Numbered from the stretch's first letter, positions 1 through 40,566 are shown. The stretch is 64,000 nucleotides of DNA from Pachysolen tannophilus NRRL Y-2460 (GCA_001661245.1 KV454014.1:1-64000), one strand, 5' to 3'. The notes: a model not told the origin generated them from the letters alone. Numbers and translations are program-made.

Positions 1-388
1 ACACCACTCACACCACTCACACCACTCACACCACTCACACCACTCACACCACTCACACCACTCACACCACTCACACCACTCACACCACTCACACCACTCA
101 CACCACTCACACCACTCACACCACTCACACCACTCACACCACTCACACCACTCACACCACTCACACCACTCACACCACTCACACCACTCACACCACTCAC
201 ACCACTCACACCACTCACACCACTCACACCACTCACACCACTCACACCACTCTCACCACTCACACCACTCTCACCACTCACACCACTCTCACCACTCACA
301 CCACTCTCACACCTCTCACACCACTCTCACACCTCTCACACCTCTCACACCTCTCACACCTCTCACACCTCTCACACCTCTCACACCT
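1..388. repeat. Telomeric repeat array, unit ACACCACTC (G strand GAGTGGTGT), with proximal variants TCACCACTC and ACACCTCTC
   Basis: Perfect 9-bp tandem array from base 1 to ~250, then variant units to ~388; C-rich strand at the window's 5' end. Confidence 0.95.
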
Positions 389-2507: not shown

Positions 2508-4433
2508 ATGTCTCTTCAACTTGAACCTGATATCACAAGAAAGTCGGATAAGTTGCATGAACCTGAAGCTGGTACTATGCTGGACAATAAAAAAAGTGAC
2601 GAAGTTTTTTCCTCGTCTCATGCTACTGAAAACAATTCAATTGAAAATGAAGAAGAGGTAGAAATTATTGAGACTAAGTCTGTTACTTTAAGAAAAACAG
2701 AAATTATGGCTGCTCAGTATGATACTATATATCATAAAATACTGATTTTATTCTCTGCTTTCTTGGTAGGTTATGGTTATGGTTTGGACAGTCAGGTCCG
2801 TTCTGTTTTCACTTCTTATGCTACTTCTTCTTATAGTACACATTCTTTGATGTCCACTGTTAATGTTATTGATGCTGTGGTTGCTGCAGCTTCTCAACCA
2901 CTGTATGCAAGATTAAGTGATGTCTTTGGAAGATTGCAATTATTTATTGTTTCTATTCTCTTTTACTCTATTGGAACCATTATTCAAAGTCAATCATATG
3001 ACGTTCAAAGGTATGCAGGTGGTTCTGTCTTGTATGAAATTGGTTACACAGGTGTTATCTTAATTTTATTACTTATTTTATCTGATTTTTCTTCTTTAAA
3101 ATGGAGATTATTTTTCACTTTTGTTCCTTCTTTCCCATTCATCATAAATACCTGGATTAGTGGTAATGTTACTGAATCTGTTGGAGGAAGTGACTGGAGT
3201 TGGGGTATTGGTATGTGGGCTTTTATATTTCCATTAAGTTGTGTTCCATTGATATGTTGTATGTTACATATGAGGTGGTTGGCAGGTAAGACTGATGAAT
3301 GGAAACAACTAATGGAAGAAAATCGTATTAAAACTGAAAAGTTTTCTACTGCCTCCAGTGCTTTTTATAAATTCATGGTAGACTTATTTTGGAAACTCGA
3401 TATTATTGGTTTATTTTTATTGATCGTTTCTTTGGGTTGCCTTTTGGTTCCATTAACTTTAGCTGGTGGTGTCAAAGAAAAATGGAAACACGGAAATATC
3501 ATTGGTCCAATTGTTTTAGGTGGAGTTTTAATACCAGTGTTTGTTTTCTATGAGTTCAAATTTGCTAGATTTCCAATTGCACCATTTAAACTTGTTAAAG
3601 ATCGTGGTGTTTGGTCACCTATAGTTATGTCATTCTTATACGACTTCATCTTCTATGTTGCTTGTGACTATTTATATACTGTCATGATCATTGCAGTAGA
3701 CGAATCAGTTAAGTCTGCAACAAGAATTAATACTTTATCATCGTTTGTTGGTGTTGTTGCATCTCCCTTTTTTGGCTTGTTTATCGTCAAATTTAAAAGA
3801 TTAAAAGGATTTATGATGTTTGGTTGTTCCTTGTGGTTGGTTGCATGTGGTTTGTTGATGAAGTATAGAAGCGGTGAAACTTCTCATTCAGGTATTATAG
3901 GTGCCCTTTGTGTCTGGGGTTTAGGTACATGTTTCTTTTCCTACCCAATAACTGTTTCATTGCAATCCGTTACAACGCATGAAAATATGGCTAATGTTAC
4001 TTCATTATCTTATATGACTTATAGAATTGGTGCTGCTGTTGGTTATGCTATTTCTGGTGCAATATGGACTCAAACTTTGTACAATAAAATATTAAAATAT
4101 ATGGGTGATCCTACATTAGCTGCTACTGCTTATGGTTCTCCTTATGAATTTATTGTTTCATATCCTTGGGGAACTACAGAGAGAACTGCTTTAGTTAAAG
4201 CTTACAGAGATGTCCAGAAATTGGAAACCTTAGTTGCACTTGTATTTTGCGTACCATTGTTATTTTGTACATTTTTCTTGAGAGATACAAGATTGACGGA
4301 CGAACAAGCTCAAAGGAAATTTCATCGTGGTGAATTGGTTTATACAGAAGATAAAGATGTTATTGGTGATTGGTTTGATCGTCTTCAAAAAAAGATACAA
4401 AGAAAAAAAACGTATAGTCTAGATATTGACTAA
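2508..4433 (+). CDS. SIT1: Siderophore-iron MFS transporter (ARN/SIT1 family)
   Basis: Multi-TM MFS with YARLSDVFGR, PFIINTWISG, WSWGIGMWAFI and YPWGTTER motifs; likely start at ATG 2508. Confidence 0.85.
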   Translation: MSLQLEPDITRKSDKLHEPEAGTMLDNKKSDEVFSSSHATENNSIENEEEVEIIETKSVTLRKTEIMAAQYDTIYHKILILFSAFLVGYGYGLDSQVRSVFTSYATSSYSTHSLMSTVNVIDAVVAAASQPLYARLSDVFGRLQLFIVSILFYSIGTIIQSQSYDVQRYAGGSVLYEIGYTGVILILLLILSDFSSLKWRLFFTFVPSFPFIINTWISGNVTESVGGSDWSWGIGMWAFIFPLSCVPLICCMLHMRWLAGKTDEWKQLMEENRIKTEKFSTASSAFYKFMVDLFWKLDIIGLFLLIVSLGCLLVPLTLAGGVKEKWKHGNIIGPIVLGGVLIPVFVFYEFKFARFPIAPFKLVKDRGVWSPIVMSFLYDFIFYVACDYLYTVMIIAVDESVKSATRINTLSSFVGVVASPFFGLFIVKFKRLKGFMMFGCSLWLVACGLLMKYRSGETSHSGIIGALCVWGLGTCFFSYPITVSLQSVTTHENMANVTSLSYMTYRIGAAVGYAISGAIWTQTLYNKILKYMGDPTLAATAYGSPYEFIVSYPWGTTERTALVKAYRDVQKLETLVALVFCVPLLFCTFFLRDTRLTDEQAQRKFHRGELVYTEDKDVIGDWFDRLQKKIQRKKTYSLDID

Positions 4434-4923
4434 TCTAATGAAAACTTATTCTTCCAGAGTTCATTTTTAACACTATGTACCATATTTTATTCTTTTTTTT
4501 TTTTCGATATCGGTTTAATCATCATTTATGAGCGTTAAATTAATTTGATATTATGGAGCCCAAATGAACATCACAAAAAATAAAATTAAAAAAAAAAAGA
4601 CATTTACAATGTAAGTTTTTAAGTTAAAGTTTCAAGACAAATTGAAGCTTGCTATCAATATTCGGAATTCTTGTTTAAAATATCATATATCATATCATTT
4701 TGATTCTGCCAATGAGCGAAGTCCAAATATTTACAGGAGCCCAATCTATAGTAACGAATTATCGAACGATGAAGTATACTATCTTGTTTTTTTACCAAAA
4801 TCTTTTAGAACCCATTTTTATTAAACCTTAATCTATATATCTCTCTATCAAACACATAAACTAGATGGAATCTTTAGGAGAGAACTTCCAAATAACCATA
4901 AATCAAACATACAAGTTCCCACC

Positions 4924-5628
4924 TGGAATGATCAAGGTACGGTATTCATTATTACTAGAATCAGAAAAGGCTCTGCGTTTACTTAAAACAGATACATCTA
5001 ACATAATGGCAAAAAAAAAAAGAGAATATAAAGATAACAAATTATTAGTATCCATTCTGTGTTTTATGAAAAATCTTACTTTACTTACAATATTCAAATA
5101 AGTGATTTTCTATATTTGTATTCGTACGGAAATTTATGAATGAAACTTCACTGTTGTTATAAAGGTTTTTAAAATTGATCTGTGAAAAGCTTTTAGCAAG
5201 TAAAGATTTATTCTCATCTTGGTCTATATTATGAACATCACTGGTTATGAAATAATTAATACCATTGGTGAAAGCAGAACTTAATGAAATATCGTTGAAA
5301 TTAAAATTTATAAAATGAAAGTTTTCACTAGTGATTTTTTGAAGAATAGCACCTGAATCTTTTGCCATTTCTAAATGATGTTGATTAGCATCATACCAAG
5401 TCAATATCTTTTCATAACTGCATTGAAGTCCCAATCTAGCACAAGCCTGACATTTAGGTTTCCCTTCTATTTTCACCGTATTAGTTAGCTTTCAAAAACT
5501 GTACTTTAAATCATTTCGAAGAAATACAAACTTACCATCACATTTTTTTTCCTCTTCTTACAAATTAAACACCCAGATCTTTTCCTAACACACTTTCTCT
5601 TGAAGCTATTCTGTTTTTGTATAGCCAT
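4924..5628 (-). pseudogene. 5' half of a Zn(II)2Cys6 transcription factor (exons 5628-5536, 5466-5089, 4997-4924), inverted relative to its 3' half
   Basis: GCLICKKRKK..CD / EGKPKCQACARLGLQCSY zinc cluster; two GTAAGT..CTAA(C/T)..TAG introns; ends at EYRTLIIP; A8 run in exon 1 shifts the frame. Confidence 0.8.
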
Positions 5629-5979
5629 TATATCTTAAGAAATAGTTGTTCCATTCCTATTATGCAATTGAAAGATAAGATAAGAAAAGTAGTAAAGAAA
5701 ATTTGAAAGTAGTGAGTAAATAGTGAGTAAATAGTGTGTTTACTAAGAGAGCTAAACAGTTTATATAATAGTGATGAGTATACCAGTTTAACTATAAGAT
5801 TTGCACAAGGTCAGTATTCTAAGATTCTAGACTGAAAAGTAAATAAGTATCGGAAGATTTCTTTTAATGCGATCATATTTACTGGACTTTCATACCCTCA
5901 AAGTAGCAATTATGACTAAAAATTAGAAGCAGCAATCTTCTTTTAATAAACCTTAAACATCAGCAGAACCTTAAAAAAA

Positions 5980-7065
5980 AATTGCTATATATCACCTGCT
6001 TTGTTTCATTCGGTAATCGCATTGGCAGCAAATGATATGGTTAGAAAGCAGCCACAACATTCAAAGTATTATTCATCGTTATCAACAAAGTATAAGAATG
6101 AGGCCATCACCATATTACACAACATTTTAGATAATGAACCGCATTTTTTATCTAGTGATTCTTCAGATTTACTAAATGAAATAATCGTGACTATATTGAT
6201 GTTATGTTCTTTAGAAATAAGTGATAAGGGAAATAAGAATTGGCTTAATCATTTGAGAGAAGGTGGTCTTATATTTGGTTCATTATCATATTCAAAAATT
6301 TTGAATTCTGGGATGTTATTATTTTCTTATCGGTATTTTACATTGCGTTATATATTATTATTAACAACTTTAAACCACGATGAATTACAAAAATTTTTAG
6401 AAGCATCACCTTGGCCCATAATATCCAATTTTTTTGATAATGATAAAGTTGATTACATGTTAGGCTGTTCCCCTAGTCTTTTAAAAATTATTTACAAGAT
6501 TACAGTTTTAAATTATAACAGGTTTTCTATGACTGAGAATGAATTTCGCCAGGAATATGCACATTTAGAAGATGAATTGACAAATTTAAATCAACAGTTG
6601 AATAATAATGATAAAAATAGTTTGGAATTAAAACTATGTGCTCAAGCCTATTATGAATCTACCAAAATTTATTTACGTTACTCATTGTTCATCTTTTCAG
6701 GAATGGAATTGGCACCATCCGATTTCGAAAAACTAATGAACACTGTTCTTTCAGTTTTAAACAGGTTAATCTCAGAAGTAAAACATTTAAGTTTATTCCC
6801 AACATGGACAATATTCATTGCAGCTTCTTGCTCCTCAAATCTTTTAAATGATGCCGTAAGATTCTCCATATTGAACAATTTTGAAGAATTAGAAAAAGTA
6901 TGGCCTCAAGCATCTAATTCTCAAATTAGAGTTGCAATAGAAACAATTTGGAAAACTTATGACTTGAATTTCGATCTTATTAACCATTACTCTTCATGTG
7001 AAGCTGGTCTTATTGACTGGAGAGATATCTTAAGTATTACAGGTTTTAAACTAGCATTAACTTGA
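5980..7065 (+). pseudogene. 3' half of the same Zn-cluster factor (Fungal_trans_2-type domain), lacking its own N-terminus
   Basis: NCYISPALFHSVIALAA..ILMLCSLEI..WLNHL..DYMLGCS..IDWRDIL; continues the minus-strand RTLIIP motif. Confidence 0.8.
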
Positions 7066-7286: not shown

Positions 7287-7356
7287 TATATATGAATAAT
7301 CTTGTGTGGTGAATTTGAATTAGAGTGAGTGGTTTGGTTGTAGATTATTTTGAATA

Positions 7357-8553
7357 ATGACTTGTCTGGAGTATGTATTGGAGAGAACTACTGATGCTAG
7401 AGTGTATCTGTGGTGTCATTTACAAAATTCATGTTCTTGGAAGTCGAATTTAACTTCTGAGCAATACGTTAAAAGGGAATCTGTTTTATCCTTGACGAAA
7501 ATTTGTAATGCCCAAAGAAATGAGAATGAATTAAAAGGTATTCATTATTGGGTTCTTAGGGATATGGGAATTGTTAAAAATGAAGGTGTTAAAAATGATG
7601 ATGAGGTTTACGATTTGACATATAATATTGTTGCTTCATCAGAGACTCTTTTCAGGGAATCATGGGTATTTCAATTTAAAGATGGAATAGTTGATAGGAA
7701 ACAAGTTTTATCACCTTGTATTGGTGGGGTCTATACACTTCCATCACAAAGAGGTAAAGGTGTTGCTTCTATTATGATTACAAAATTAAATGAAAAATTA
7801 TCTGAGATGATGGATAAAGATAGATTTATAACTTTATACTCAGAAATTGGTAATTATTATGAAAAATTTGGTTATAAAAATTTTGAAGTTGGTTTATGTC
7901 ATATTCCAATTCTTGATGAAGATTTAAATATCAATATCAATATTGATGAAAATTTTTCATTTAATTTTTTAAAAAATGGAGAATTTAAACAAATTATTGA
8001 ATTTTATAAAAAAAAATTTTTAAAACAAATTGAATCATTAGTCTTATTAGATAAAAATAGGACCAAGATTAGTTTAATTCCATCAATTGAAGTTATTGAA
8101 TGGCATCATGAAAGATCAATTTTCATCTCAAAGACCCTCTATGATGTAAAACCAGGTCATTTTGGAGTTCAAATATGTGATAATCAACAAAATTTGAAAG
8201 GATTTATAATTTGGACTCATGATTATAAAGAAAAATCATTAGTATTACTCATTATTTATGGTGAAAATTTAAATATTTTAACTGATTTAATAAAGCTTAC
8301 AATTCTTGAAGCTAAAAAGATAAATTTTGAAAAAATTATTTGTTGGGAATCTGATTTATTCAATTATAAATTAAATATAAATGGTATTGATAAAGATGAA
8401 ACCTCAAAATTTACAAAAATCATTGAAACTGATTTACATGGAAAATTACATTTAAAAAATGGCTCAATAAGTGCTGCTTTAAAATTCCATAATAATGTTA
8501 ATGATAATGGAAATTTAGATTGGGAAGGAAACGGCAAATGGGCCTGGTTTTAA
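7357..8553 (+). CDS. GNAT-family acetyltransferase (LYC1-like)
   Basis: IGGVYTLPSQRGKGVA acetyl-CoA motif; LYSEIGNYYEKFGY. Confidence 0.75.
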   Translation: MTCLEYVLERTTDARVYLWCHLQNSCSWKSNLTSEQYVKRESVLSLTKICNAQRNENELKGIHYWVLRDMGIVKNEGVKNDDEVYDLTYNIVASSETLFRESWVFQFKDGIVDRKQVLSPCIGGVYTLPSQRGKGVASIMITKLNEKLSEMMDKDRFITLYSEIGNYYEKFGYKNFEVGLCHIPILDEDLNININIDENFSFNFLKNGEFKQIIEFYKKKFLKQIESLVLLDKNRTKISLIPSIEVIEWHHERSIFISKTLYDVKPGHFGVQICDNQQNLKGFIIWTHDYKEKSLVLLIIYGENLNILTDLIKLTILEAKKINFEKIICWESDLFNYKLNINGIDKDETSKFTKIIETDLHGKLHLKNGSISAALKFHNNVNDNGNLDWEGNGKWAWF

Positions 8554-21499: not shown

Positions 21500-22073
21500 T
21501 TAATAGCCAACACTGATCAAGTAGTCAGCCAATTTCTCAACTACTGTTGTAGCATCTCCTGGCTGAACACCTGAGGGATAATGAGCAACCAAAATAGTTT
21601 GTGTTGATTTAACAATCACAACACCTTCGGCATCCTAAATAGAAGAGATGTTAGTAAAAAAAAGAGAAGATTTTTTTTTTTTTTTTTGATTTTTTAAACT
21701 TACGTGTTTACCATAAATTGATCTTTCATCAGCTCTTAATAAAAAATATTTTTGTTGTTGAACATGTAAACCATTAGCTTGCAAATTCAGAGGATTTGAA
21801 AAACCTTTAGTAATTTCCAGAATCTCATTTGGTTGTAACTGGAAATTATTCGAACTTGCCCATACGGAATCTCCAGCAGCTGAGTAAATTGTCGCTTTAT
21901 CAATTTTGCCTGTTGCTACCAAATTATCGGTATACGCTGTTGACCAAGAAAAAAAAAAAATTGATTGAATGTTAATACTTTGCTTGAACCAAGATAAATA
22001 TATTAAAAAAAACAAAAAAAATAGACAATTAAAACAATTATGAAAAATTAAATAACTAACCTTGCCACGACAT
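21500..22073 (-). CDS. PFY1: Profilin; exons 22073-22061, 21936-21704, 21634-21500
   Basis: [44 protein letters not shown]. Confidence 0.93.
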
Positions 22074-22355
22074 TTCTCTATCTAGATTATAATACTATAA
22101 TTTAATTGATGAGAATAACTAAACTAAACAAGAAAAATGATATTTAAATATCATTAAATTGGTTTGGTTGGTACCTGCACCTATTTTGTATACGCTCTTC
22201 CAACTGGAAACTTTGACCATATTTACCCGGAAAGATTCTTCTACAAAACAAAAACAATTGATACGTTTCTCACTACTGTGTGGGATTACAATTACAATAC
22301 TAACAACAACAACAACAATAACAACAATATTCTACACGATCCTATGTATGTGAGG

Positions 22356-34109: not shown

Positions 34110-35525
34110 ATGGATTCGAAAGTAATTGGAATTTTAGGTGGTGGTCAATTAGGACGTATGATAGTGGAAGCTGCTAATAGGTTAAATATCAAGACCATAG
34201 TGTTGGATGCACCAAATTCACCGGCAAAGCAGATCAATGCATTAGATCCTCATGTTAATGGTTCTTTTACAGACCCAAAATGTATTAAGGAATTAGCTTC
34301 AAGATGTGATTTATTAACAGTTGAAATTGAACATGTTGATGCTGATTATTTAATGGAATTACAACTGCAAACTAATATTGAAATTTATCCATTACCTGAA
34401 ACTATTAAATTGATTCAGGATAAATATTTACAAAAATTACATTTATTAGAACATGATATTCAAGTTGTTGAATCTAAATCTGTTGAATCTACAAAAGAAT
34501 CTTTATTAACTATTGGAAAATCATTTGGGTATCCATTCATGTTAAAATCTAGAACTTTGGCTTATGATGGTAGAGGTAATTATGTTGTTAAATCTGAAGC
34601 AGGTATTGACGATGCTTTGAAAACGTTATCAAACCGTCCATTATATGTTGAAAAATGGGCTCCATTTGTTAAAGAATTGGCAGTTATGGTTGTTAGATCA
34701 GTTGATGGTAATGTTCAATCATACCCTGTAGTTGAAACTATTCATGAAAACAACATTTGTCATTTATGTTATTGTCCAGCTCGTGTTAATTATACTGTAC
34801 AAGAAAAAGCTCAACTATTGGCTAGAAATGCAATTAAAACTTTTAATGGTGCAGGTATATTTGGTGTAGAAATGTTTTTATTGGCAAATGGTGAATTGTT
34901 GATTAATGAAATTGCACCAAGACCACATAATTCAGGTCATTATACAATTGATGCTTGTAATATTTCACAATTTGAAGCTCATATTAGATCTATAACAAAT
35001 TTACCAATGCCAAAAGGTTTTACTTCATTAACTACAACATCAACAAATTCAATTATGTTAAACGTTCTTGGTGATTATATAACACCTGATGCAGAATTGG
35101 AAAAATGTCGTAAAGCTCTTGAAACTCCACATGCTTCAGTTTATTTATATGGTAAAACTACAAGACCTGGAAGAAAAATGGGTCATATCAACATTGTAAG
35201 TTCATCAATGGAAGATTGTCAACGTAGATTGGATTATATAATGGGTCATACTAATGAAATCCCAGCAAGCTTGGATTTCAATAAAGATAATCAAATTGCT
35301 GGAACTTCAATAAAACCATTAGTTGGTGTCATAATGGGTTCAGATTCAGATTTACCTGTAATGTCAAAAGGTTGTGAAATCTTGAAAAAATTTAATGTCC
35401 CATTCGAAGTTACAATCGTTTCAGCCCATAGAACTCCTCATAGAATGTCCAAATACGCTATAGAATCAACAAGAAGAGGACTCAAATGTATTATTGCAGG
35501 AGCAGGTGGTGCAGCACATTTACCA
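34110..35525 (+). CDS. ADE2: ADE2 5' part (ATP-grasp plus first half of AIR-carboxylase domain), truncated after codon 472
   Basis: [52 protein letters not shown], then read-through into non-coding sequence to a stop at 35627. Confidence 0.93.
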
Positions 35526-35964
35526 TCTTCTTCTTCTACTACTACTACTATTACTACTTTTCCTTTTTCTTTTCCTATTTCCCTTGATTTGATTTCCTTC
35601 TATTTTAAAAACAAAACAAAACAATAAAAAAAAAAAAAAAAAAAAAAATACAACTCAATTAAAACCTAAATCTTATCAATGAACTATTAATCAACCTCAA
35701 CCAAAAGATCAATTAATTCATCAATATTTCATTAAATTATATAAACTAAATCAATTCAATAATTTATAGTAACAAGTTTCAATTTATGGTTTTATTCACT
35801 TTTGATTTCTAAGGTAGAAATTATTGGTTTGATTTACACGACACACTTTCTCCTTTACAAATTACTAAGAGATTGAGTGTAATGATGATGATGAAGAGGT
35901 TATTGAAGTTAATTGGTTTATTGAGTAAATATATATATATAGAGAGAGAAAGAGATTATATAGG

Positions 35965-36261
35965 TTATTGTTTCAAGTAGTCTTCGTAGCCAATTGCTTC
36001 TAATCTCTGTGCTTTTGTCAACACTTCTTCTTCCATGTTGTTCATATAAGTTTCCATTTCAATTAACCATTTAGAATCGTGAGCACCTAGTATTTTAATT
36101 GCTAATAGAGCAGCATTTGTTGCATTATTTATGGCAACCGTGGCAACTGGAACACCTCTTGGCATCTGGACGATACTGTGTAAAGAATCTACTCCATCTA
36201 AAGTTGAGCCTTTAACAGGGACACCTATGACGGGTAATGGAGTCATAGCAGCAACCATACC
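35965..36261 (-). CDS. ADE2: ADE2 3' part (rest of AIR-carboxylase domain), on the opposite strand
   Basis: [46 protein letters not shown] is the exact continuation of HLP. Confidence 0.93.
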
Positions 36262-36351: not shown

Positions 36352-39300
36352 ATGGTTGAACCAGAAAATAGTGGTAGTAACGATTTTGATGGAGACGTTG
36401 AAATGCTGTCCAATGATCAAGTTAACGAAGAATCTGATAAGTTGGTAGATTTACCGGCGGATAGTGTGGAAGTAAAGCCGCTGCACGGCGGATCTGATGT
36501 GGCGGTAGAAGGGGACGCAAAGAGAATGAGGGAAAGTCTTGTTGGTGTTAGCGCTGATAATGAGCTAGAAGTTGTGAAAAGCAATGGGACAGAACAATTA
36601 CAGGAATTGCAAGAATTGCAAGATTCACAGGAATTACAAGAATTACAGGAATCACAAGAATCACAATTTTTACAAAATTTACAAAATTCACAAGAAATTA
36701 TTCAAGAGAATGATTTACAGTCTCAAATTATTCAATTGTTACCTGAAAATCCTAAAATCTATAAAACCTCAGATAGAATTTTGGATGATTTAATAAACGA
36801 TATTTCAATGTTTAAAATGGGGTTTAATAGTGGTATATTAGGATTGCCTACAATAATGTATGCATCGAATTTATCATATTATTTAAGTGAAAAACAATAT
36901 GCATCTGATTATAAATTATTAATTTTAAATAATCAATTGGCCTATGCTCCAAGTCAATTTATGCCGGAAGATGGATATACAATAATAAGAGGTTTAATAG
37001 TGGAGAATCGCGATAATTATATTCCTAATACATTGGTATCAAACGAATTATACCATGTTAAAATTATAATAAAAGAAGATGAAGAAATTTTTAAAAAAAA
37101 TCCAACAAGTATTAAACATACAAAAAAATGTTACAAGCATGGGTTTTTCAAAATTGAGGATGATGAATTGACCCCACAAAATAAAATCAAATTGATCACT
37201 AATTATAGAAAAGTGCTAGAAAATTCAAATTTAGAAAAAAAAGATTTACTGTTTGTTGAAAAATCAATACCAAACGTTATTGATTCAGCAAATTTTATAT
37301 GTAAAAGTTGCAAGTTAATCATAAGGTTGGAATTGTCTACAGCAGAATTTGATAAAGAAGCAATAAATAATTTTCAATTAGATGAAATACAACTAAGATT
37401 TAGCCGTTATATCTCACTGTTGAACGGTAAAGGAGAAGAAGATATTGCAGTTAATGAAAAAATTCCATCTATAGAACAATGTTTTACAACAGTGGGGAAA
37501 GTTGTAAAAGGACCTTTACAACGTTTGCCTAATGACGAAATTAAAAGTATTAGAGCAGATAATAAATCTGTTAATATACATTTAGGTATCGAGTTTATGA
37601 TAAATTATTTGAATTTTACAAACAATGAAGAAATGTCAGAACTATTCCCTCCAAACATGGAATTGCCATTAGTAAAGGAAAGTTATATAAGAAAATATTT
37701 TGAATCAATATATTATTCAAAAATGAGTAACCTAACTTACAGTGGAGAAAATATTATTTTGAAACATTTAAATGAAGCAGTACATTTTGGAGGAAATGCA
37801 TCATTGGATATAGAGGATCGCAAATTGGACCATTCCAAAGGTTACATAACGCTTTCCTGTAAAAATAGGGATTATTCAGATGAAAACATTAAGGAAATTT
37901 ATAAGATCTTAGTTACAATCGACCCTGCAAATGAAATGAAATATTTTGATTGCTTAAAAGAGGTTGCAAACTATAGAAGAACAACCAATATAATGACCTA
38001 CATTGCACAACTATCATCAGAGGGAAAAATTGGATTTGATGAATTATGTGAATATTATAAAACTTTACAAATTCCTTTAGATGCCAACGTGAATGATATT
38101 TCTGATGAAATTTTGATTGATCAATATAAGCTATTAGTTTCAAATACAACATCAAAATCATTGAAGGATTCATTAAGATCAAGTTTTTCAAAATTAGGAA
38201 AAATTAGACATAGTCTGTTTATTCAAGATTATTTGAATTCTGAGCCTTTAGATGATTTGGAACAGGCTTATAATAATCTTGATATAAGTGAATCTGTTGA
38301 TGATGATGTTGTTATCACTGCATATGGAATTAAGGTTGACGATTTCCCAACAGATACCAATTTGTACGATCGTTCATTATTGTCAATTGCTATTAATAGA
38401 AAGTCGTTCATGTTATTAGATTATATTGAAAATAATTTAGGCCATTTGAATTACTTCTTACCAATTGATTATAGTCAAGCTTTTTCGTATATTGGATGTG
38501 ATGAGTTGGCAAATGAATTTCAAATTATTACTATTTTCCAAGAAAGATTACTGAAAGATCATTCTTGTGATGTGAGATTGCTAAGAGCATACTTGAGAGA
38601 AATTGGACAAACTAGAAATTCTCAATTAATTCTCAACTTTCTAAAAACTGGAATTATTGATCAAAGATACTTGCCAGTGGAAAATACTCCAGTTGGTTTG
38701 AATAATATTGGTAATACATGCTATTTGAATTCTTTATTGCAATATTATTTTGTTATAGAACCTTTAAGATCTGAAATTTTAAAATTTAATGAGGTCTTGA
38801 CGAAAGAACTGTTTGAGTCAAATGAATTATTTTCTAGAAGAAGAATTGGTGGAAGAACTGTAGGATATAAAGAAACAGAAAGATCATATCAATTCATATA
38901 CCAACTACGAGATTTGTTTGAAGAATTAATCAAAAGCAATGAGAGATGTGTTTCTCCAAAAAAGGAATTGGCATATTTGGCATTTTCACCAAGTACGGAC
39001 GAGGTTGAATTTGATGTTTCCCAATTAGATGACGAAGATTTTGATGAACAAGGACTCACAGATAAAGATAAACAGCTAGTACTCAGATCAAACTCTACAG
39101 TCATTGCTAATTCGACTTCTTCACTAGAAAGTAGTCAGCATTCCACTAATACTTTATCTGTCGAAAATGAAAAGTCAATGGATATAGATTCCAAGGAGTC
39201 TGACACTGAGGCCACCCTTTTCGAAAATGAGACTGTTTTGGTTTCAAGTCCGCAGAAAAGAAGATTATCATCGGAATCTAGATCCGGAGGTAGTACTAAT

Positions 39301-40566
39301 ATTAAATCAATAAACAAAGGTAATGAAACCATACCTCTGGCTGATAACGAATCTTTGTTGGAAACTACCGATGAAGTCAACAAGGTCGATGACGACTCCT
39401 CTCTCCTGATAGATCGTGACAGTGTTACTGATGAACCAAAACTATTACATGAAAAAACTGAAAGGAAAAATACTTCCGCTATTTGCAAAATCAGTACGGA
39501 CCAAATGGAAAATGCTCTTGAAATGGGTAGACAACAGGATGTAACGGAATGTATTGAAAATGTATTATTTCAGATGGAAAGTGCATTTACTCCCACGGCA
39601 TTAGATGAGGACAACGAACAAATTGATTTGATCAAAAACTTGTTTTACGGTAAAACAAAACAGACTTTACAACCCATTGATCCGGAAACTGGCTCACCCC
39701 TTACTAGCGGTAATGTCAGATCAAAGGTTGAAAGATTTTTGAGTTTATTGGTTAATATTGGTGATCATCCTAAAGATATTTATGATGCTTTAGATACTTA
39801 TTTCACTGAGGATATAATCAATTTAGATGATGGTCAGGTAAAGAGAACTTTGACCATTGCAGAATTGCCTAAAATCTTACAGATTCAAATTCAAAGAGTT
39901 CAATTTGATAGAGAAAGGTATATGCCGGTTAAGTCTATTGATCCGATTCCTTTTGAAGAAAAAATTTATATGGATAGGTATATGGAAACTGATGATGATG
40001 AAATAATTGAAAAAAGAAAGGAAGTTTTCAACTGGAAAAAAGAAATAGCAAATCTAAACTCTGTAAAAGCAAAATTATCTGAGAAAATAGATGGTACACA
40101 GTATAATGCCAAGGACTCTTTGACCGTATTGAAAAATTATTTAGAATCTGGTACCTTGGATAATTTTGAAGGGATAAGTGTGAAGCCAGAAACTATTCTG
40201 ACGTTGAACGCCTTGATTGAAAGGATCTTTCTGAAAGAAACTTCGTTGAATAATGAGTTAGCTGTCTTGCAAAATAATATTGCTCAACAATTTACAAACT
40301 TCAACAAAATTGGATATTCAATTTTTGCCATATTTATTCATCGAGGAGAAGCATCATATGGCCATTATTGGATTTACATTAAAGACCCTAAGAGGAACGT
40401 TTATAGAAAATATAACGATGAAAATGTTAGTGAAGTTTCATTAAAAGAAGTTTTCAACTTTGATGAGGGAAACACAGCAACACCTTATTTTTTGGTTTAC
40501 GTGAAAGATGATTTGGAAGATGATTATGTTGAGCCTTTGAAAAGAGATCTAGAAAATATTAGCTGA
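36352..40566 (+). CDS. UBP2: Ubiquitin-specific protease
   Basis: Cys box GLNNIGNTCYLNSLLQY, QQDVTEC, His box HRGEASYGHYWIY; long repeat-containing N-terminus. Confidence 0.9.
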   Translation: MVEPENSGSNDFDGDVEMLSNDQVNEESDKLVDLPADSVEVKPLHGGSDVAVEGDAKRMRESLVGVSADNELEVVKSNGTEQLQELQELQDSQELQELQESQESQFLQNLQNSQEIIQENDLQSQIIQLLPENPKIYKTSDRILDDLINDISMFKMGFNSGILGLPTIMYASNLSYYLSEKQYASDYKLLILNNQLAYAPSQFMPEDGYTIIRGLIVENRDNYIPNTLVSNELYHVKIIIKEDEEIFKKNPTSIKHTKKCYKHGFFKIEDDELTPQNKIKLITNYRKVLENSNLEKKDLLFVEKSIPNVIDSANFICKSCKLIIRLELSTAEFDKEAINNFQLDEIQLRFSRYISLLNGKGEEDIAVNEKIPSIEQCFTTVGKVVKGPLQRLPNDEIKSIRADNKSVNIHLGIEFMINYLNFTNNEEMSELFPPNMELPLVKESYIRKYFESIYYSKMSNLTYSGENIILKHLNEAVHFGGNASLDIEDRKLDHSKGYITLSCKNRDYSDENIKEIYKILVTIDPANEMKYFDCLKEVANYRRTTNIMTYIAQLSSEGKIGFDELCEYYKTLQIPLDANVNDISDEILIDQYKLLVSNTTSKSLKDSLRSSFSKLGKIRHSLFIQDYLNSEPLDDLEQAYNNLDISESVDDDVVITAYGIKVDDFPTDTNLYDRSLLSIAINRKSFMLLDYIENNLGHLNYFLPIDYSQAFSYIGCDELANEFQIITIFQERLLKDHSCDVRLLRAYLREIGQTRNSQLILNFLKTGIIDQRYLPVENTPVGLNNIGNTCYLNSLLQYYFVIEPLRSEILKFNEVLTKELFESNELFSRRRIGGRTVGYKETERSYQFIYQLRDLFEELIKSNERCVSPKKELAYLAFSPSTDEVEFDVSQLDDEDFDEQGLTDKDKQLVLRSNSTVIANSTSSLESSQHSTNTLSVENEKSMDIDSKESDTEATLFENETVLVSSPQKRRLSSESRSGGSTNIKSINKGNETIPLADNESLLETTDEVNKVDDDSSLLIDRDSVTDEPKLLHEKTERKNTSAICKISTDQMENALEMGRQQDVTECIENVLFQMESAFTPTALDEDNEQIDLIKNLFYGKTKQTLQPIDPETGSPLTSGNVRSKVERFLSLLVNIGDHPKDIYDALDTYFTEDIINLDDGQVKRTLTIAELPKILQIQIQRVQFDRERYMPVKSIDPIPFEEKIYMDRYMETDDDEIIEKRKEVFNWKKEIANLNSVKAKLSEKIDGTQYNAKDSLTVLKNYLESGTLDNFEGISVKPETILTLNALIERIFLKETSLNNELAVLQNNIAQQFTNFNKIGYSIFAIFIHRGEASYGHYWIYIKDPKRNVYRKYNDENVSEVSLKEVFNFDEGNTATPYFLVYVKDDLEDDYVEPLKRDLENIS

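Follow-up and report, generated by a model that had tools for sequence, protein, structure and literature searches.

A Gal4-type regulator gene split across opposite strands by a small inverted block in Pachysolen tannophilus NRRL Y-2460

The regulator gene and its two pieces

The first 64,000 nucleotides of KV454014.1 from Pachysolen tannophilus NRRL Y-2460 (GCA_001661245.1), analysed here as a whole and referred to as the window, carry a transcriptional regulator gene in two pieces between positions 4,924 and 7,065. The N-terminal piece, which holds the exons of a Zn2Cys6 DNA-binding domain, lies on the minus strand. The C-terminal piece, which holds a Fungal_trans_2 domain, lies on the plus strand. 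Comparison with homologous proteins confirms that the locus is one Gal4-type (Zn2Cys6 plus Fungal_trans_2) regulator gene split across strands, with a match far beyond chance. A first-pass annotation, generated from the sequence alone, had placed the end of the minus-strand part at 4924 and the start of the plus-strand part at 5980, and both the codons and the open reading frames (ORFs) agree with these endpoints.

The minus-strand piece is read through two introns (Table 1). The splicing that the first-pass annotation assumed is borne out by GTAAGT donors at both introns and by the product of intron 2 removal, LFEYYVSVLSKRRAF, which agrees with the homologue pattern LF(E/D)YY(V/I)xV(L/I)SK(K/R)K(V/A)F. 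Removal of intron 1 gives CDE|GKPKCQAC. The last minus-strand codons before the joint, AAT AAT GAA TAC CGT ACC TTG ATC ATT CCA, encode NNEYRTLIIP, and the final CCA is the reverse complement of 4924-4926. On the plus strand, the ORF at 5950-7065 reads TLNISRTLKK and then NCYISPALFHSVIALAAN. The ten codons ahead of NCYISPALF match nothing, and homology begins at the AAT codon (Asn) at 5980-5982. The C-terminal part has no start codon at the joint; its first in-frame ATG, at 6037, lies 19 codons in and would give a product of 342 amino acids. The block ends are ambiguous by 1 bp each, and the interval could be 4925-5978. The regulator pieces hold no CTG codon, so CTG reassignment leaves their reading unchanged.

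The plus-strand ORF matches Fungal_trans_2 (PF11951) at 120.4 bits (cut-off 21; E 1.1e-34) over profile positions 35-374 of 384. Because the profile is covered only from position 35, the start of the domain is absent from this piece. In the alignment, the absent start corresponds to the exon-3 region on the opposite strand. For the exon-2 ORF, the match to Zn_clus (PF00172) is confined to the second half of the profile (positions 16-38 of 39) and scores 19.5 bits. This score falls under the cut-off of 21 because the first half of the cluster sits on exon 1.

A search with the C-terminal half against 5.8 billion proteins, with 2,795 candidates, yielded 16 proteins, namely the window's own record (P0001) and 15 relatives, at a best E-value of 2.1e-134. 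Nine of the 15 relatives carry Zn_clus and Fungal_trans_2 in a single chain of 477-535 amino acids. The closest relative of this half, P0002, shares 62% identity over residues 84-439 and reads straight across the joint. Local BLASTP of the four separate ORF pieces against 17 homologue proteins recovered their order. In P0003, exon 1 matches residues 11-29 (63% identity), exon 2 residues 33-149, exon 3 residues 151-174, and the C-terminal half residues 178-535. In P0002, exon 1 finds no match, exon 2 matches residues 3-58 and exon 3 residues 60-83, so that exon 3 and the C-terminal half exactly adjoin at residues 83|84.

The exon-2 ORF was searched separately among 1.84 billion representatives and returned three proteins: the window's own P0017, P0018 (550 amino acids), and P0019 (490 amino acids). 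Both P0018 and P0019 also match the C-terminal half (E 1e-54 and 4e-86, respectively). The two halves match one orthologue group (P0002-P0015, P0018, and P0019; 477-550 amino acids) in the same order and at adjoining positions. The first-pass annotation had counted best hits to different proteins as evidence against a split; the halves find the same proteins, and the split stands. Five shorter relatives of 432-471 amino acids still span the joint, as seen by alignment in P0002 and P0005 and by adjoining BLASTP coordinates in P0009, P0012, and P0013. These shorter proteins look like intron-truncated ORF calls.

Flipping 4924-5979, followed by splicing and the insertion of an X at a frameshift in exon 1, produces a conceptual protein of 543 residues (182 + 361). 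It aligns end to end with all 11 homologues compared, with zero gap at the joint, as predicted from the inversion originally proposed. The flipped joint reads RTLIIP|NCYISPALFHSVIALAANDMVR in the window and RSLIIPNCYNSPALFQSVIALAANDMVR in P0002; the closest homologue reads RSLIIPNCYNSPALF. The domain order is that of the Zn2Cys6 plus Fungal_trans_2 family, and the length of 543 residues compares with 477-535 in the relatives. Family motifs are kept throughout, including CKxRxKKCDE...KPxCxxC, LF(E/D)YY, NEFRS(I/L)I(I/V)P, SP(A/S)LFQS, and the C-terminal WRD(I/V)LS..GFKLALT. The Atlas neighbours of the C-terminal half are all Fungal_trans_2 clusters.

The nearest named relatives belong to the Debaryomyces/Candida group and are themselves uncharacterised: CANTEDRAFT_91547 of Yamadazyma tenuis (P0014; 39% identity over the C-terminal half) and Piso0_001417 of Millerozyma farinosa (P0015; 38%). 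Unlike these two, the gene described here lies in two opposite-strand pieces and has a frameshift in its zinc cluster. In other respects, the regulator is an unremarkable and uncharacterised representative of a very large family of fungal proteins, and no relative with a tested function was seen.

Three public records, all from one contig of 1,446,495 nt, show broken forms. P0001, with 361 amino acids and an identical entry in the Atlas, begins with Asn exactly at the joint and has no start codon, which a gene caller requiring none would explain. P0017 is the 95-residue ATG-to-stop ORF of exon 2. P0020 (505 amino acids; 100% identity and cover) is the N-terminal part of ADE2, a second broken gene in the window that is treated below, together with a junk tail; like P0017, it runs from ATG to stop. 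A collinear contig would not yield these ORFs, and the flips therefore belong to the deposited assembly, beyond the window. The clusters of P0001 and P0020 each contain 1 member from 1 contig, and the protein collection holds one assembly of the species.

Table 1. Coordinates of the regulator pieces, their flanking genes, and the ADE2 pieces in the window.
Feature	Position	Strand	Remarks
Siderophore-transporter-like MFS gene	2508-4433	+	flanks the regulator pieces on the left
Read-through tail past the left junction	4903-4923	-	GGNLYV, stop at 4903-4905; no homology to anything
Regulator inverted block	4924-5979		1,056 bp; exons 1-3 and 351 bp of 5' flank
Exon 3 to the joint	4924-4997	-	(Y)VSVLSKRRAFSDSSNNEYRTLIIP; ends ...SDSSNNEYRTLIIP
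Intron 2	4998-5088	-	91 nt; GTAAGT ... TACTAAT ... GTTAG
Exon 2	5089-5466	-	second half of the zinc cluster and a poorly conserved linker, to ...IENHLFEY
Intron 1	5467-5535	-	69 nt; GTAAGT ... CTAACTAAT ... AATAG; inside the zinc cluster
Exon 1	5536-5628	-	ATG at 5628, MAIQKQNSFKRKCVRKRSGCLICKKRKK...; first two or three Cys of the Zn2Cys6 cluster
A8 run with -1 frameshift	5543-5550	-	inside exon 1
Start codon of the N-terminal part	5628	-	
5' flank (proximal promoter), now between the diverging halves	5629-5979	-	351 bp; assigned by position only
C-terminal part	5980-7065	+	361 codons and stop; Fungal_trans_2; starts NCYISPALF
LYC1-type acetyltransferase gene	7354-8553	+	flanks the regulator pieces on the right (Pfam)
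ADE2 (AIR carboxylase) N-terminal part	34110-35627	+	472 codons, ...GAGGAAHLP, to 35525, then a 33-residue junk tail
ADE2 inverted block	35526-36261		736 bp; last 98 codons and 439 bp of 3' flank
ADE2 C-terminal part	36261-35968	-	last 98 codons, ends ...EDYLKQ; AIRC profile 68-147 of 148 (Pfam)

The zinc-cluster frameshift and the joints of the block

The first-pass annotation described the minus-strand part as a Zn2Cys6 DNA-binding half. The exons of the cluster are indeed there, but they do not form an intact ORF, and a -1 frameshift had been overlooked. All nine aligned homologues that reach the exon-1 region have the spacing C-X6-C within CK.R.K[KR]C[DN]E. In the window, this spacing would require AAG AAG AGG AAA AAA AAA TGT, a run of nine A, and the run holds eight. 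With A8, the frame from the ATG reads ...CKKRKKNVM and, once spliced, stops in exon 2 after 52 residues; in the frame that encodes CDEGKPKCQAC, a TAA closely precedes this stretch. None of the six Cys codons is missing (C-LI-C-KKRKK.-C-DEGKPK-C-QA-C-ARLGLQ-C), with Cys 1-2 and Cys 3-6 in different frames. The Zn2Cys6 spacing C-X2-C-X6-C-X5-12-C-X2-C-X6-8-C is absent from any single frame and appears only with an X at the frameshift. The regulator locus is a broken Zn2Cys6 member by descent, not an intact one.

A homopolymer miscall is an unlikely cause of the frameshift. In the same window, 25 other large ORFs (41,559 bases) are open across 35 A/T runs of 7-9 nt, a count that includes a few runs preceding likely start codons. 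Hence, the A8 run is probably not a miscall. Even with the A-run mended, the N-terminal part would remain a 188-residue DNA-binding stub. A gene already out of use is expected to gather damage such as this frameshift.

The frameshift also bears on the proposal that both parts are in use after a real inversion, with the old promoter driving a divergent DNA-binding fragment on one side and the 342-residue regulatory protein on the other. The proximal promoter had been assigned to the inverted block, and the ATG at 5628 with its 351 bp of upstream DNA does lie inside, a statement of position only. Such use would draw on this promoter piece between the diverging halves, on the 361 open codons of the C-terminal half with their in-frame ATG, and on the confident Atlas-predicted fold of that half alone (pTM 0.84). 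The open frame is equally explained by a recent event, however, and the N-terminal half is cut to 52 residues within its zinc cluster. No homologue was seen as a separate regulatory-only gene beside a partner, and the shorter relatives run across the joint instead of ending at it. We consider separate use of both parts improbable.

The joints themselves offer few sequence features. At the block ends, the inverted homology amounts to 1 bp (T at 4924, A at 5979), a figure already noted from the start, and the flanks share none. An AAGGT/ACCTT pair pointed out in the first-pass annotation (4934-4938 and 5968-5972) is present, yet it is meaningless: exact inverted repeats within 40 nt of the boundaries extend to 6 nt at most, and 300 random pairs average 6.7, with 86% of them reaching at least 6. 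Moreover, these 5-mers lie inside the block and could not produce the joint. Recombination between inverted repeats was rejected, as neither the repeat search nor the ±40-nt comparison with random pairs gave anything above chance.

Splice signals were sought at the joint as well. On the minus strand, the joint reads CCA|GGTGGG and lacks a donor such as the GTAAGT that opens each of the real introns. On the plus strand, the sequence ...TTAAAAAAA|AAT places no AG acceptor before AAT 5980. Pfam scans of six proteins, both flanking genes included, and of 125 small ORFs revealed no recombinase domain, with the other large ORFs of the window left unscanned. Trans-splicing and pointer-guided unscrambling were rejected on the missing splice signals and a pointer homology of 1 bp, and a site-specific inversion switch on the lack of inverted repeats beyond chance at the block ends and of a recombinase in the scanned ORFs.

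These observations weigh together on the idea that the gene is rejoined on demand, through a programmed reversible inversion, ciliate-like unscrambling, or trans-splicing. The Hin, Gin, and Fim invertases, the Flp/FRT system of the 2-micron plasmid, and the Ogataea mating-type flip need inverted recognition repeats and a recombinase. The present locus resembles such switches in that the orientation of the block decides whether the gene is whole, and differs from them in the absence of inverted end repeats and of a detected recombinase. The precision of the joint, and the recurrence of the same pattern in two genes, both broken after a CCA codon, are all that speaks for rejoining. Neither block has inverted repeats or pointers at its ends (1 bp here, 0 bp in ADE2), and the exon-1 frameshift would persist after rejoining. 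An on-demand mechanism is scarcely credible.

A second inverted block in ADE2

The first-pass annotation had labelled the regulator the second gene split by an inversion, which implies another. Approximately 30 kb from the regulator flip, ADE2 is broken in a comparable manner. Flipping 35526-36261 restores AAHLP|GMVAAM, a joint identical in all 12 homologues aligned, and no further lesion was seen in the gene. The block ends share 0 bp. ADE2 is whole (533-660 amino acids) in all 119 other homologues among the matches listed. Its nearest named relatives, [Candida] railenensis (73% identity) and [Candida] anglica (72%), belong to the Debaryomyces/Candida group, as do those of the regulator.

The two cases share a common layout. 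In each, one break cuts the coding sequence after a CCA codon, the other falls in adjoining intergenic DNA, and the joints are blunt and repeat-free. They differ in the part that is lost, which is the C-terminal 98 codons in ADE2 and the N terminus in the regulator, and in the type of gene, a housekeeping enzyme in one case and a regulator in the other.

Both coding breaks (4921-4926 in the regulator, 35520-35525 in ADE2) coincide with a codon boundary right after CCA (Pro). CCA comes directly before only 1.0% and 1.5% of the positions in the two coding sequences, figures that apply to n = 2 and to a motif chosen post hoc. The 1-bp ambiguity of the regulator joint also weakens the pattern, which is unexplained. 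Of the four ancestral break sites, a third one follows CACC. Cas9-type cuts were considered and rejected, given that only one of three ancestral break sites checked by eye has CC at -6/-5 or GG at +5/+6.

A more far-reaching reading of this pattern is that the lineage has an active blunt-cutting process, perhaps favouring sites 3' of CC(A), which re-ligates blocks of about 1 kb in reverse. If this long shot were true, the process could be a nuclease, a domesticated transposase, or a flip-favouring repair defect. It would make small intragenic inversions far commoner than in other yeasts, with 2 per 64 kb and one of them tolerated in ADE2.

Beyond the 26 largest ORFs, 125 small ORFs were screened with Pfam, and the Zn_clus and ADE2 fragments alone emerged as pieces with their missing part on the opposite strand. 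No third split gene came to light in this screen, which is blind to whole-gene flips and to those that leave every Pfam domain unbroken. Another possible break, in the profilin gene (21500-22081, minus strand), was dismissed, as that gene is merely spliced, with its second exon on the same strand.

Two further observations concern ADE2 and its surroundings. On its right side, the ADE2 block ends 90 bp before the ATG of the next gene (36352), a 1,404-codon ORF at 36352-40566 that appears ubiquitin-hydrolase-like by eye. This ORF is now preceded by the 3' end of ADE2 in reverse, a change that could influence how the ORF is expressed. ADE2 also contains a sole CTG codon (codon 86, 34365-34367), at which 12 homologues have E, D, K, S, Q, or N and never Leu. 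This single site would fit a yeast that does not read CTG as Leu.

Possible origin and meaning of the inversion

The reading that we favour, at a probability of roughly 0.52, is that the regulator gene was inactivated by a real, recent, two-break, end-joined inversion. One break would have fallen between codons Pro182 and Asn183, and the other 351 bp upstream of the ATG. The 1,056-bp piece would then have been rejoined in reverse, with blunt ends and no coding bases lost. Blunt and lossless joints fit non-homologous end joining and not repeat recombination; a single block reversal restores the ancestral order, and the breaks carry no repeats. The two parts would now point apart across the old promoter, with the N-terminal part frameshifted into a 52-residue peptide and the C-terminal part deprived of a start codon and of the DNA-binding domain. 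Such a combination suggests a young pseudogene, the reading frames of which are otherwise still open. Judged by its sequence, the locus in its present state should yield no working regulator. The split with its exact position, the blunt joints, the frameshift, and the broken forms in the public contig are observed directly; we infer that the flip exists in the DNA of the organism, that end joining produced it, and that function was lost. The inversion may be heterozygous, if the strain is diploid, or the strain may be a mutagenised or auxotrophic one.

Several lines of evidence point to a real inversion. Collinearity is regained after the flip in all 11 homologues, the relatives are whole, and the broken forms occur in the public contig. 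The second lesion in the same gene, the A8 frameshift, supports real disuse. Graph and overlap assemblers generally need read support for repeat-free junctions. This behaviour, together with the absence of N and of repeats at the joints, would make a simple misassembly harder to explain.

Other findings weigh against a real inversion. The arrangement comes from a single assembly and lacks independent confirmation. Another clean flip occurs 30 kb off in ADE2, the loss of which should reduce fitness. If two flips per 64 kb were the usual rate, the whole genome would contain hundreds. Neither coding break has lost a base, and each falls on a codon boundary following CCA, a tidiness unusual for random breakage. 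Little decay is visible beyond the frameshift, with 361 codons open in DNA of 30% G+C.

The main alternative attributes the flip to an assembly, scaffolding, curation, or other computational error, in which case the gene would be collinear in cells and intact save for the A-run. Such an error is in line with the presence of two small flips, of 1,056 and 736 bp, within 64 kb, both lossless at the coding break and with 0-1 bp of homology. The same applies to the disabling of an ADE2 gene that is otherwise whole among the listed matches, to the near absence of decay in both halves of both genes, and to the existence of one assembly of the species in the protein collection. On the other hand, the window is free of N runs, and an assembler would meet no misleading inverted repeats at the block boundaries. 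Homopolymers elsewhere appear accurately called, which speaks for a polished assembly, and the additional frameshift is consistent with real disuse of the gene. We know of no common assembler fault that gives clean, repeat-free flips of 1 kb, and this also counts against an error. An artefact is possible, though well short of an even chance.

Small inversions form part of budding-yeast genome evolution, as described in three studies (PMC1391921, PMC4915352, and PMC2675101). In the portions of these sources consulted, the published inversions resemble the present flip in that a short segment is reversed in place within an ordinary gene neighbourhood. As far as those portions go and as far as is known, the published inversions involve entire genes, have their breakpoints in intergenic DNA, and often span longer segments. 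In the flip described here, by comparison, one break cuts the coding sequence, the block measures about 1 kb, and the gene appears dead. Such a flip would count as a polymorphism or defect and not as a gene-order change that has become fixed. The parts consulted of the literature on yeast inversions and ADE2 breakpoints contain no report of such a split gene. Gene breakage by a small inversion is an ordinary lesion; the oddity is the occurrence of two clean flips in 64 kb, one of them in ADE2.

If the flip is real, the locus provides a dated, base-exact case of a gene killed by a very small inversion without repeats, in a yeast that has received little study. Taken with ADE2, it would suggest that double-strand-break repair is unusual in rate or mode in the lineage, and that the strain is adenine-requiring or heterozygous. 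If the flip is an artefact, a public chromosome-scale assembly has local orientation errors that create false pseudogenes, which matters to annotators and to comparative-genomics pipelines.

The remainder of the window provides the setting for both flips. Its DNA has 29.7% G+C and zero N, and its genes are ordinary budding-yeast nuclear genes, several of them with short introns. A tRNA scan of the window found none, and a composition profile showed nothing special in the inverted block at 4924-5979. The first kilobase of the window has a higher G+C content (38%) and a strong C-over-G skew. An ORF at the left edge (6-326, minus strand) has a hit to the collagen triple-helix repeat (E 3e-17) and probably encodes a Gly/Pro-rich repeat protein of low complexity, cut off by the end of the window.

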